DNA of 64,000 nt. Source: Flaccisagitta enflata. Lineage: Eukaryota. Position 1 is the first letter of the stretch, and the number at the start of each line of letters is the position of its first letter. Of this stretch, positions 42,983 to 61,529 are shown piece after piece. The notes below the pieces were generated by a model. The model did no database searches. It was not told the origin of the DNA and saw nothing but the letters and a program-made list of their open reading frames with translations. Where the stretch lies: NCBI GenBank assembly GCA_965153355.1, contig OZ231126.1, forward strand, positions 27,156,001-27,220,000, read 5' to 3'. The position numbers were made by a program, and so were the translations under genes.

Positions 42983-43453
42983 TTACCCCAGTTTTTTCCC
43001 CGAATCGTCCTTGTCCCACTTGTCAACATATTCGGATTCGTCACCACATGTACAATCAGTAAACTTCGAGGTGGCAGAACAATGTTTCACGTGGCAATTT
43101 ATACAACGGTCCTGGCCAAAAAACGGCATAAATTTTTTGCCTGAGCATTTGGTACACCTTTTTTGTCCGGTTTCACCAGCGTAGTGACCAGGATCACAAG
43201 CAAAGCAGTCATATTGCCCATCCCTGTCAGAATATGAGCCCTTGGGGCATTTCTCACAGCCACTAGCTGCGGTGTTGTCATTCGTACGCGAGCCCGCCGT
43301 ACACTTCTCAGTACATCTTGGGCTTCCCTCTTTTGAAGTGAATTTCCCTAATGGACAAGTTTGACAGAAACTTCCGCGTTCATCCGGTTGAAAATATCCA
43401 GTTCCGCAGTTGTAGCATTGCGGCGCGGACAAAGTAGATGCATCCTCCCAAAA
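42983..43453 (-). CDS. MACPF gene last visible exon, Cys repeats; ends in TAA that overlaps a possible GTAAGA donor
   Basis: Acceptor gttttccag, 157 codons including the stop. Confidence 0.88.
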   Translation of the reverse strand, partial: FWEDASTLSAPQCYNCGTGYFQPDERGSFCQTCPLGKFTSKEGSPRCTEKCTAGSRTNDNTAASGCEKCPKGSYSDRDGQYDCFACDPGHYAGETGQKRCTKCSGKKFMPFFGQDRCINCHVKHCSATSKFTDCTCGDESEYVDKWDKDDSGKKLG

Positions 43454-46400
43454 CTGGAAAACAAGCCCGATCAAGTAACGATGCGTCCTCTGCATCGTGC
43501 GAATATCGCGATGAAAAAGCCTGACTGATTGATAGACAGACATACACACTGTCAGACTGTCAAAAAAAAAAGAGAGAGAGTCGGATGGACGGACGGAAAG
43601 GGAGGCAGAGAAAGAGAGTCTGAGTAAAACTGAAAGACAGACTGAAAGACAGACAGAAAGACGGACAAAAAGATAAATACCGAATGAAATTTTCATCACA
43701 TTTGAATACAACTATGGAGAGATGGCCCAACCGTCCGTCGTTCAGTGTGTCCGTAACAACACTTTTAATATGTCTAATGGTCGGACCGTTTATCCGTCGA
43801 TTCTTGCGCAACCCCTCCTTTAAAATCACCCTTTTGCCGCAATGAGTTGCCCGATCGCGCTTGTTTTACCCTAATTGGCGGCCGAAAAGCTGCGTGTGTT
43901 AGGTCGTTATCTTTTCTTAGCTTAAATCCGTAGCACAAATAGGAATTCCATTTTTCTGGTTCAATGCGGAAGAGACGTTGCTTTGATTTTCCTCTTGGAA
44001 TGTAAAGGACCGTACCCTTCGACACACAGTTGGCCTCGTTCGTCCCATAAAATTCGAACTGTTTGCCATCCCACGGAACCATTTTTTCTACTGCTTGAAA
44101 AGAAAACGCCACTACAACTCTGGGTCGCTTGAATTTGAAGTAGAGATGAGCCTTGCCAGTTGAAATGTCTTTCGATTTCCAATAACGTTTGGGTCGCTTC
44201 CCAGGGCAATTGCCAGTGAATGGACATTCTGCTTTAAAGCCAGATTCCGTTTTGTCCGACCCTGCCTCACCATCCCCTGACACGAAACGAATCTGACCTA
44301 TGTCCTTGCCTGGGGGACAACCATCGCAAACAGGTCTTCCCTCCTGACTTTTAACTCCTGCAGGACACTTGAGACATTCTGCCTTGCCTTCTTGCGGTTG
44401 ATACCAATCTTTAGAGCATTTCGTACATGCCGTTGAGCCTGGATTCCTGGCAAATTGACCTCGTGGACAAAGATTACAGGATGACTTTTCTTCTTCATTC
44501 TGGAATTGGCCTGCGGGACATTGGGTGCACTTGGCCGCACCCTCCTTGGAATACGAACCTGCTAGGCACTTGAGACAACTGGTGGCCCCCTCATCGGGTT
44601 GATATTTGCCCGCTGGGCATTTAGTACACTCACCGCTTTTCTTTTTGGCGGCAAAGGATCCTGCCATACAAAGTAGACACTTATCCCTCGCTTCGACGCT
44701 GTGAGAACCGGCTTCGCACTCTTTGCATTTAGCGCTTCTTTTCTGATTAGTGTATGTACCAACTCCGCATTTCAAACACTTGGTGGCCTTTGCATTGGAA
44801 GCATAATATCCTATTTCACAATCGTCACACTTCATCTGTCCAGCTAATGGCTGAGCGGTGCCTAAAAATCAAAATATGACAAAGATTCAGTATAAGATAG
44901 GTAGATCACTCCATTTCCTTGGTGCAGTAACGGACATTTCTTGATCGCGGCGCCACAAGAGACTTTGGTCGTCCGTTGGTCCGTCCGCCCGTAATGCTTG
45001 AGTTGAAGAGAGTGAAAACACGCATTTCCTGCCCATCCATTACAGACGGAGCAATAATTTAGCGTGAGGCGGCGCTAAAAGTTTTAGCCACCCCCCCTAC
45101 AGCCAATTTGGCCACATCAATTTTCCAACTGAAAATGGTTTTGAATACTGAGGGAGATTTGATGCGGCGCCATCGAGGCGATTTTTGAATTTTTATCTAG
45201 AACCCCCTAATTAACCCCCCTTAACCCCCAAAATAACCACCCCACCAAGAGCTAAAAAATCGCAAAATTTTTTTTCTTGATTTTTATCAATTTTTTTGTT
45301 GGTTAGTGTTATATGATGTCTGAATTGACTATAATTAACAATTTTTTGGTTTGTTGTGAATTTTTTTATATGAAAAAATATTTTCTCGATGTCACATTTT
45401 CAATTTTCAATTTTTCAAAAAGAAATTTTTATATGAAAAATTGCAAAACAAACCAAAAAATTGTTAATTATTGTTCATACAGACATCATATAACACTAAC
45501 CAACAAAAAAATTGACAAAAATCAAGAAAAAAAATTTACATGCCAAAATGAGTAAATCTATAACAATTGATACTCACCTGGATTACAATCTTCACATCCA
45601 CTCATCCTGTCAATAGTTCTTGTTCCAGGGGGACAAGTTAGGCACTGTGTTCCACCTTTGACATTACTGTACGTTCCCTCCGCACACACAGGACATGAAT
45701 CAGCGACGCCAACTTGATCAGAAGCTTCTCCATAGTTACACTTGGCACATTGGTTGGCCCCATCATCTTGATCGTGAGCTTTGAGACTGTGAGTGCCAGC
45801 TTGACATTCGATGCAATCTATTCTTTTGGAGGACATCCATCCTGGATCGCAGGGAATACATTCCGTTCGTCCAGGGGCATCAACGAAAGTACCAGAAGGA
45901 CAATCTTCGCATTTCACTGCACCATCATGCTCGGAGAATTTCCCTGCTGGACATTTGTGACAGAATGTCTCTCCTTCTCTCTCCTGAGCGTGACCAGCCT
46001 GTAGAGGTATATGATGGAGCAAAGGGATTGGGATCGGGGTATATAGGAAATTGACACACACACACACACACACACACACACACACACACACACACACACA
46101 CACACACACACACACACACACACACACACACACACACGCACACACACACACACACACACACACACACACACACACACACACACACACACACACACACACA
46201 CACACACACACACACACACACACACACACACATACACACACACACAAACACGCGCGCGCGCGCGCACTCACGCGCACATGTCTTTCCTTTATCTTCCTCA
46301 CTAGATGCACACATACCGTGCAAGATTTACATTCAGTTGCTCCTTCCTCTTTTGAGTAAGTTCCAGCAGCACATTTTTTGCAGGTATCAGCCGAGGTTGC

Positions 46401-61245: not shown

Positions 61246-61477
61246 CTGCGAGAGACACAATTTGTGTGTGTGTGTGTGTGTGTGTGTGTGTGTGTGTGTG
61301 TGTGTGTGTGTGTGTGTGTGTGTGTGTGTGTGTGTGTGTGCGTGTGTGTGTGTGTGTGTGTGTGTTTGATACATGAATTTGGAAATTGACAAATAATAAT
61401 CGATTTATTTTGTTGGTTTTTTTTTTTGCGTCTGAAAAAAATTGTGGATATGATTATCAACTGTGCCTTTCCTCTAC

Positions 61478-61529
61478 CCTGAAATACGTAGTTGTTGGAG
61501 AGTTGGTGTAAATTCCATAAGGCAATCGT
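61478..61529 (-). CDS. Probable upstream exon of the MACPF gene (RLPYGIYTNSPTTTYFR)
   Basis: Acceptor tttag, donor GTAGAG, 52 bp, phase 2 to 0. Joins in frame to 61245-61154. No homology support. Confidence 0.45.

Follow-up and report, generated by a model that had tools for sequence, protein, structure and literature searches.

A predicted gene of Flaccisagitta enflata that joins a MACPF domain to a long cysteine-repeat region and places its product in an uncharacterised animal family

Animals rely on proteins with a MACPF domain as central tools of killing and development, and to our knowledge few types have been studied outside vertebrates (MPEG1, apextrin, the TX60 toxins and PV2). Here we report the model of a MACPF gene in a stretch of 64,000 nucleotides (nt) from Flaccisagitta enflata (assembly GCA_965153355.1, contig OZ231126.1, positions 27,156,001 to 27,220,000 of the forward strand), which is called the window below and supplies all coordinates given. 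The window is eukaryotic DNA rich in microsatellites. It is predicted to hold one intact minus-strand gene in which a MACPF domain is joined to a long cysteine-repeat region, and the encoded protein is assigned, by its sequence, to a MACPF family of animals that is uncharacterised and has members in flatworms and corals. A preliminary description, made from the letters of the sequence, had placed a giant perforin-like protein with a cysteine-repeat stalk and putative recognition domains at 42983-61529.

To build the gene model, frame-keeping GT donors and AG acceptors were listed, the remaining borders were read by eye, and the exons were joined by script. The resulting minus-strand multi-exon gene runs from 54526 down to 42983 and comprises 13 joined exons (5,617 nt, 1,871 codons) with no internal stop; the stop codon at 42985-42983 marks the 3' end of the coding part. 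Every exon is preceded by AG and followed by GT, except that the last one ends at the stop codon, and the 12 introns are all intact GT-AG introns with compatible frames and phases. A stop-free series of 1,871 codons over 13 exons, taken with the 15 of 16 homologue queries that align collinearly (see below), is more than chance would give. Since the first mapped exon opens on the last base of a codon, at least one upstream 5' exon is missing; the gene therefore has at least 14 exons, 13 of them mapped and at least one at the 5' end unmapped, and the protein at least 1,871 amino acids (aa). The upper limit of 61529 had to be given up, because the most upstream supported exon starts at 54526, the missing 5' exon was not found between 54527 and 64000, and no coding sequence was seen between 54527 and 61529. 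Within 1.1 kb downstream of the stop codon, AATAAA occurs only at 41910. The exons, all on the minus strand and numbered from E2, are as follows.

54301..54526, minus strand: E2, conserved region ahead of the MACPF domain with the motif Y-P-x-G-x-G...N-x-C-F-G-T-G-Y; AG/GT borders; first exon found
53297..53517, minus strand: E3, start of the MACPF fold (GVGFDGRGYY...SRKASLIQRVC), from homologue tblastn
52525..53016, minus strand: E4, part of the MACPF domain; a Gly/Ala/Ser-rich stretch of 79 aa occupies the expected place of the first hairpin (TMH1), followed by the core strand and FVK
51721..51905, minus strand: E5, MACPF signature YGTHYIRSAEFGG and start of the second hairpin (TMH2) region; Pfam PF01823
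50522..50665, minus strand: E6, Ser/Glu/Lys-rich tip of the TMH2 region
49850..50112, minus strand: E7, C-terminal MACPF part (GGNP...WLHSIEDYAKPF), from homologues and a spliced RNA contig
49331..49494, minus strand: E8, conserved linker (…SLARAIAVYLVEGP…), from homologues and the same spliced RNA contig as E7
47523..49046, minus strand: E9, post-MACPF domain (~49046-48116) with predicted jelly roll (~48565-48116), furin-like Cys-rich piece (~48112-47905) and nine CxxCxxG units; PF07699, E 8.6e-21
46690..47045, minus strand: E10, Cys repeats; PF07699, E 1.2e-18 on the open reading frame (ORF) 47068-46658
46317..46474, minus strand: E11, Cys repeats; PF07699, E 2.9e-20 on the ORF 46508-45558; a (CA)n run lies in the downstream intron
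45578..45998, minus strand: E12, Cys repeats
43870..44861, minus strand: E13, Cys repeats followed by a 147-aa Cys-poor insert (44310-43870); PF07699, E 6.5e-32
42983..43453, minus strand: E14, last Cys repeats, short acidic tail and stop codon (42985-42983); PF07699, E 1.3e-12

Exon E2 was located by tblastn matches of homologue residues ~111-190 at 54519-54292 and had no Pfam match at E <= 10. The E3 block is kept in 13 of the 14 rows of the family alignment, the exception being an N-terminally truncated relative (P0001). Ahead of the point that matches the start of E2, the relatives have a signal peptide and ~110 residues of poor conservation. A scan for an ATG with a hydrophobic start upstream of 54526 gave nothing usable as a first exon, and a hidden Markov model (HMM) of four flatworm-type N-termini, run against all minus-strand ORF pieces in 54400-64000, found none either (best E 5.4). 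An in-frame ATG lies at 54552-54550, eight codons ahead of the E2 acceptor; a start there would drop the signal peptide and the N-terminal helices of the family. The whole model contains no transmembrane-like segment (the best 19-aa hydropathy mean, 1.81, falls inside the MACPF core) and 114 cysteines, which together fit an extracellular protein.

The Pfam scan of the window covered nine ORF translations, three of which carried no family at E <= 0.1. The MACPF family (PF01823) matched the exon ORF at 51946-51656 (E 2.7e-6, 28.1 bits against a gathering cut-off of 21.5), and YGTHYIRSAEFGG in E5 fits what we take to be the MACPF signature pattern, [YW]-G-[TS]-H-[FY]-x6-G-G; on these two grounds the MACPF identity proposed in the preliminary description holds. 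The signature motif, which is kept in the family alignment, and the GG hinge are intact. The two splice junctions proposed earlier, FVKR (52525|51905, FVK-R-YGTHY) and AQ|GGNP (50522|50112, AQ-G-GNP), are likewise both GT-AG and frame-consistent and belong to the 13-exon set. When a profile of the family alignment was searched against solved (PDB) chains at E <= 1, the best MACPF matches were GNIP1Aa (6fbm, 8.1e-15) and Mpf2Ba1 (8b6v, 4.4e-9), followed more weakly by C8 alpha (3.8e-7), perforin-1 (3.5e-6), C9 (1.1e-5) and PLP1 (1.5e-4); the proteins matched include established pore-formers. The GNIP1Aa alignment sets profile positions 103-372 on residues 17-282, from the E3 block onward. Judged by these scores, the solved structures nearest to the MACPF domain of the family are those of bacterial insecticidal toxins, with perforin, complement and MPEG1 more distant. 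The stretch at the TMH1 place comprises 79 aa (S17 G16 A12) and that at the TMH2 place, from E5 and E6, 91 aa (S19 E12 K10 T9); in the family alignment the coral members have much shorter stretches at both places. Gly-zipper Pfam matches at the TMH1 stretch are weak (E 0.56-0.6).

Downstream of the MACPF part, the roughly 1,300 aa of further sequence announced in the preliminary description are present in open frame, and the MACPF and Cys-repeat regions lie, as it proposed, in one gene. This join follows from exon E9 and from the homologues, not from RNA: E9, an uninterrupted exon of 1,524 nt, alone encodes both the post-MACPF domain and the nine CxxCxxG units that open the array, and a single high-scoring segment pair (HSP) links the model to a Macrostomum lignano protein (see below). 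Five of the nine ORF translations, all between 49060 and 42983, scored above the gathering threshold of PF07699 (Ephrin_rec_like/GCC2_GCC3; E from 1.3e-12 to 6.5e-32), and the stretches matched number 4, 4, 4, 4 and 3, or 19 in all. CxxCxxG occurs 35 times in the model, and many of these units follow one another at a spacing of 17 residues. The earlier estimate of about 40 GCC2/GCC3 repeats corresponds to these half-units, and as a count of repeats it does not hold. The best solved match of this stalk is the mastigoneme protein Mst1 (8tx1, E 2.2e-19, three stretches).

The CxxCxxG array is interrupted by the Cys-poor insert of 147 aa at 44310-43870. The insert had no Pfam match at E <= 10, F5/8 type C (PF00754) included, and no match among 141 relatives (best blastp E 1.9). 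Its nearest clusters in a language-model atlas are of F5/8 type C (0.96), which we take as a lead only; of the earlier discoidin-like label this atlas lead is what stands. The insert may be a galactose-binding-like beta-sandwich of the sugar-binding type.

The post-MACPF domain, hereafter the middle domain, was analysed as the 330-aa stretch 49060-48071, the first five residues of which precede the E9 acceptor. It had no Pfam match at E <= 10 in the window, and the same holds for most of nine short relatives. An AlphaFold (AF2) model built with a 51-row alignment of the family reached a pLDDT of 88.7 and a pTM of 0.79; the model from the single sequence (pLDDT 31.5) was useless. Compared with 48,161 chains by VIA-align, the former matched the carbohydrate-binding module CBM66 (4b1m; Z 13.2, root-mean-square deviation 2.4, 131 residues aligned), galectin-11 (Z 12.1) and many galectin, LNS/LG, legume-lectin and SPRY chains (Z 10-12), mostly over residues ~166-315, and Foldseek agreed on the fold. 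On these structural matches the middle domain is predicted to carry a concanavalin-A/galectin-like jelly roll preceded by an alpha/beta part. The Methyltransf_FA-like label given to it earlier is reasonable as a guess at the fold, a lectin-like jelly roll, and did not hold as a family assignment: HMMER found no PF12248 match at E <= 10 in the domain of the window or in the nine short relatives, and PF12248 is absent among the 25 of 31 families listed for 51 aligned members (E <= 0.01). The atlas clusters nearest the middle domain do carry PF12248 (scores 0.93-0.94, 167-170 shared features), which is a lead only because the recognition value of 1545 is low (below 2300). Two further families, PF26010 and PF27023, are annotated on M. 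lignano relatives in precomputed form and are absent from the Pfam copy used; either may cover the middle domain. The piece called furin-like in the preliminary description keeps its Cys spacing in the family consensus, and PF00757 matches two of the 51 relatives (best E 4.8e-4); no PF00757 match was found in the E9 ORF at E <= 0.1 or elsewhere in the window.

A search with the middle domain against 1.84 billion representative sequences gave 126 relatives at E <= 1e-3, of which 67 reach 1e-10 and 31 reach 1e-30. According to Pfam, all six long relatives examined have the MACPF domain (~residues 320-600), then the middle domain (~640-1000) and then a variable tail, in which Ephrin_rec_like, Kringle, SRCR, C-type lectin, EGF, HYR, Sushi, F5/8 type C and SUEL lectin modules occur. 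Among the 51 aligned members (25 of 31 families listed), MACPF was found in 28 (best E 4.9e-22), Ephrin_rec_like in 16, F5_F8_type_C in 6, SRCR, Lectin_C and EGF in 4 each and Chitin_bind_1 in 3, along with pentaxin, Laminin_G_3, fibrinogen_C, SUEL lectin, tectonin and others. Judged by these annotations, the tails appear to form mostly a repertoire of recognition modules. A source is named for 17 of 20 annotated relatives: Oculina patagonica (8), Macrostomum lignano (6) and one each from Montipora capricornis, Desmophyllum pertusum and Nematostella vectensis; all are annotated only as 'hypothetical', 'uncharacterized' or by domain name.

The closest relative, P0001 (908 aa, from a 4,499-base ENA contig; the one match among 673 candidates), carries PF01823 and PF07699, is collinear with six exons of the window from the MACPF part into the repeats, and shows 46% identity over model residues 169-1073. 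The M. lignano protein P0127 is covered by one blastp HSP over 1,422 residues (model 3-1424 against 94-1507, 34% identity). When N-terminal 720-aa pieces of 16 long relatives were used as tblastn queries, 15 were collinear, the exception (P0007) having a different N-terminus. In a quick maximum-likelihood tree of 32 rows (P0009 omitted, as it has no signature; midpoint root for drawing only), the window protein pairs with P0001 (support 100) within a clade of nine rows (support 100) that includes the M. lignano rows, and the anthozoan rows all lie on the other side. The protein shares with the family a collinear N-terminal region, the MACPF domain and the ~330-aa middle domain with its PCNVKWSN...GDIF.(I/V)FA block. 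The core conserved among these sequences consists of a short stretch at the N-terminus, the MACPF domain and a ~330-aa domain ending in the predicted jelly roll and then a furin-like Cys-rich piece; after it comes a tail that varies with the lineage.

The alignment also showed differences at the hairpins. At the first hairpin, members of the flatworm-type clade carry a Gly/Ala-rich, glycine-zipper-like insert of ~45 residues (52527-53015 here; also P0001, P0003, P0004, P0127 and P0130), which is missing in P0128 of the same clade, in three named coral/anemone rows and in four unnamed rows. At the second hairpin, the clade has an extra Ser-rich stretch of ~36 residues, missing only in the three named coral/anemone rows.

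The preliminary description had not recognised this architecture. As annotated, the same combination of MACPF and Ephrin_rec_like already stands in public databases as uncharacterised M. lignano proteins, and anthozoan corals have the core with tails of other kinds. A literature search, which did not extend to supplementary tables, found no account in which a MACPF domain is combined with GCC2/GCC3 repeats or with this middle domain. The M. lignano proteins (e.g. BOX15_Mlig022132g2, UniRef A0A1I8J970) and the anthozoan LOC proteins share with the window protein the collinear N-terminal region, the MACPF domain, the middle domain and the furin-like piece, and the M. lignano members also have Ephrin_rec_like tails. 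They differ in sequence (31-36% identity for M. lignano, best blastp alignment) and in the tail, which is longer in the window protein and includes the 147-aa insert unmatched among 141 relatives; in coral members the tails consist of pentaxin, Laminin_G_3, F5/8C or fibrinogen modules.

Among solved proteins, the bacterial insecticidal GNIP1Aa (6fbm) and Mpf2Ba1 (8b6v) match nearly the whole MACPF domain, and the solved structure of Mpf2Ba1 is a large assembly of many chains (43 over two entries); both differ in being bacterial, ~450-540 aa long and without a Cys-repeat stalk. Neither their C-terminal domains nor perforin C2 or MPEG1 P2 are among the fold matches listed for the middle domain. 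Perforin-1 and complement C6-C9 also combine a signature-bearing MACPF domain with accessory binding modules, although their profile matches are weak; the window ORFs have no TSP1, LDLa, EGF or C2 Pfam match, and the accessory parts here are the predicted ConA-like jelly roll and the GCC2/GCC3 repeats. Mst1 of Chlamydomonas (8tx1) resembles the stalk in its long arrays of the Cys-repeat module in a solved extracellular structure, but lacks a MACPF domain and comes from an unrelated organism and biology. The snail perivitellin-2, PV2, comprises two chains with a tachylectin-type lectin. The accessible parts of two reports describe its lectin as delivering a MACPF pore-former (PMC7082926; bioRxiv 10.1101/2019.12.23.880021), whereas the lectin-like folds of the window protein, a likeness of predicted fold, would sit in the same chain as the MACPF domain.

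MPEG1/perforin-2, as outlined in the portions available of PMC10781884 and PMC7424014, consists of a MACPF domain, a P2 domain, a transmembrane anchor and a short tail; the former gives 13 copies for M. lignano. It is likewise, on these partial sources, an ancient animal MACPF protein expanded in invertebrates, but the window model has no transmembrane-like segment and no MPEG1 chain appeared among the PDB matches at E <= 1. The anthozoan TX60/NveMAC proteins, cnidarian MACPFs with venom and developmental roles, are defined in the available part of bioRxiv 10.1101/2023.10.30.564692 by a signal peptide together with one MACPF domain, whereas members of the present family are ~1,000 to 1,900 aa long and have a second domain and tails. 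As to the apextrin type, no ApeC match was found in the nine window ORFs or among the 25 families listed for the 51 relatives. An oyster survey reports, in the part available, ten MACPFs with the MACPF domain alone or with ApeC (PMC13090629), of which CgMACPF-6 (980 aa) might be a core-only member of the family, as a candidate only. By its predicted domains, the window protein is a MACPF protein outside the MPEG1, complement/perforin, apextrin and TX60/NveMAC groups.

RNA evidence was taken from four marine metatranscriptome runs of one study, which contained 5-9% of the sampled words of 43001-53000; the reads were aligned to 47496-62500, so that the junctions tested lie upstream of E10. The E7|E8 junction was confirmed by a contig of 286 nt without differences (X1), which joins 50035-49849 to 49493-49395; since a C stands at both 49494 and 49849, this join equals the predicted intron 49849-49495. 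Further contigs with few or no differences lie in E9 (48631-48942, 47762-47918 and 47936-48096), and exonic contigs were found in three of the four runs. Some exons are transcribed at a low level. In 50001-50501 and 59019-61022, the summed contig depth was very high (up to ~5,000) and joints of the type 50185->60215 occurred, which indicates a dispersed repeat, present here in two copies and abundant in the RNA or DNA of many organisms; the depth is uninformative on expression of the gene.

The gene structure, the domain order, the membership of the family and, from the model, the fold of the middle domain are established here. As to function, we lean with restrained confidence towards a secreted pore-former that is guided by recognition and serves defence or predation. 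Once secreted, the protein would attach through its jelly roll, insert and stalk to a glycan-bearing surface on a microbe or on prey, and the MACPF domains would then oligomerise, insert their two hairpin regions and damage the membrane; the target could be a microbe (defence) or prey (venom or digestion). This is the simplest reading because the protein is of extracellular type with an intact MACPF domain, an adjoining lectin-type fold in every full-length member, and recognition tails.

Several points weigh against it. Both hairpin-place stretches are long, dominated by S, G, A, E and K, and poor in hydrophobic residues, and thus differ from the hairpins of lytic MACPF proteins, which are amphipathic. 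A lectin fold in common is no demonstration of sugar binding, and Cys-repeat, EGF and Sushi tails are equally typical of matrix and adhesion proteins. As regards secretion, neither a signal peptide nor a first exon was found in 54400-64000 by tblastn with the N-termini of six relatives at lax settings; this failure is weak evidence because the N-terminal ~110 aa are poorly conserved across the family. The RNA is thin: of the 12 junctions one is confirmed, by the spliced E7|E8 contig, and depths are 2.6-4.8. One contig (X2, 50469-50663, no differences over E6) reads through the E6 donor and is therefore unspliced RNA or DNA. The polyA run X5 gave no exonic cover (262 reads, 261 of them partial, all on repeats) and is evidence neither way.

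The main alternative, which we hold to be less likely, is that the same gene and family encode a non-lytic MACPF protein of the extracellular matrix, of adhesion or of development, in which the MACPF domain serves assembly or signalling and not pores. The polar, low-complexity TMH1 and TMH2 regions would suit such a role, as would the EGF, Sushi, HYR, Kringle and collagen COLFI modules among the tails. Non-pore roles have been proposed for the MACPF domains of astrotactins, BRINPs and Torso-like, and a review reportedly treats perforin-like proteins with alternative mechanisms (PMC5483515). There is a precedent in Nematostella, where, according to the available part of the report, knock-down of three mesoendodermal MACPFs led to mis-development (bioRxiv 10.1101/2023.10.30.564692). 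On the other hand, the MACPF domain keeps both its signature and its GG hinge intact, two bacterial insecticidal MACPF proteins come closest among solved structures in the profile search, and the tail modules are mostly of lectin or pattern-recognition types.

Two further explanations concern the gene itself. That the MACPF and Cys-repeat exons belong to two neighbouring genes, the joined model being an artefact, is close to refuted: although no RNA read crosses E8|E9 or any junction past E9 (reads aligned to 47496-62500) and the 5' end is unmapped, the single exon E9 bridges the post-MACPF domain and nine Cys units, all six long relatives examined have this domain after the MACPF domain in one protein, and the frames, the phases and the unbroken HSP to P0127 fit one gene. 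A decaying or unexpressed copy (pseudogene), or a true start at the ATG 54552-54550 without a signal peptide, is improbable. The first exon was not found in ~9.5 kb upstream, a region full of repeats, and RNA depth is very low, but the long stop-free frame, the 12 intact introns, the family motifs that are kept and the zero-difference exonic contigs, one of them spliced, speak for a working gene, and the poor conservation of the N-terminus makes the failure of a similarity search weak.

A broader idea, which we hold as tentative and rather doubtful, concerns the family as a whole: it may be an ancient cnidarian-bilaterian set of one-chain 'recognise-and-perforate' effectors, in which a fixed engine of MACPF domain and jelly roll was re-aimed by swapping tails (lectins, SRCR, F5/8C, chitin-binding modules, GCC2/GCC3 stalks). 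If true, the family would amount to a modular weapon system, of innate immunity or of predation, without earlier description. The results add a further MACPF family of at least 126 sequence clusters, with a second domain unmodelled in the Pfam copy used and with varied recognition tails. Pore formation by its members would show invertebrates aiming perforin-like weapons with interchangeable lectin modules; the opposite outcome would be one more case of a MACPF domain reused for other extracellular tasks. Macrostomum lignano is a laboratory species open to RNA interference and transgenesis, and since it belongs to the flatworm clade, the family is testable there.

The surroundings of the gene are dominated by repeats. 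No long ordinary exon-like ORF was seen in 1-42000, where ORFs of at least 110 aa are microsatellite, minisatellite or repeat translations and short exons were not searched for; Rfam gave no match across the window at gathering score. A search for paralogues with six exon ORF translations (53550 down to 47522) returned from the window only the gene's own repeats and copies of the E3 edge. These copies, three in number and diverged (53885-53811, 54045-53956 and 53720-53526), lie in the intron upstream of E3 (53526-54045), repeat the first ~27 codons of the ORF with the E3 acceptor, and look like a tandem duplication of the exon edge. Low-complexity sequence of poly-T and (GAA)n type takes up over 400 nt of the intron E9|E10 (47100-47500). 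A minisatellite with steps of 9 and 15 nt and 24 copies occupies 57626-58096 and 61457-62643; its ORFs, up to 389 aa in several frames, are Pro/Ala/Thr-rich or Gly/Ala/Val-rich and of low complexity, and their coding is putative. Two large palindromic repeats of foldback type, resembling miniature inverted-repeat transposable elements (MITEs), lie at 50918-51528 and 58873-59390. The first, inside the intron E5|E6 and flanked by (CA)n, has arms at 51010-51213 and 51234-51437 that are 91% complementary, and the second has arms at 58956-59119 and 59140-59303 that are 88% complementary.

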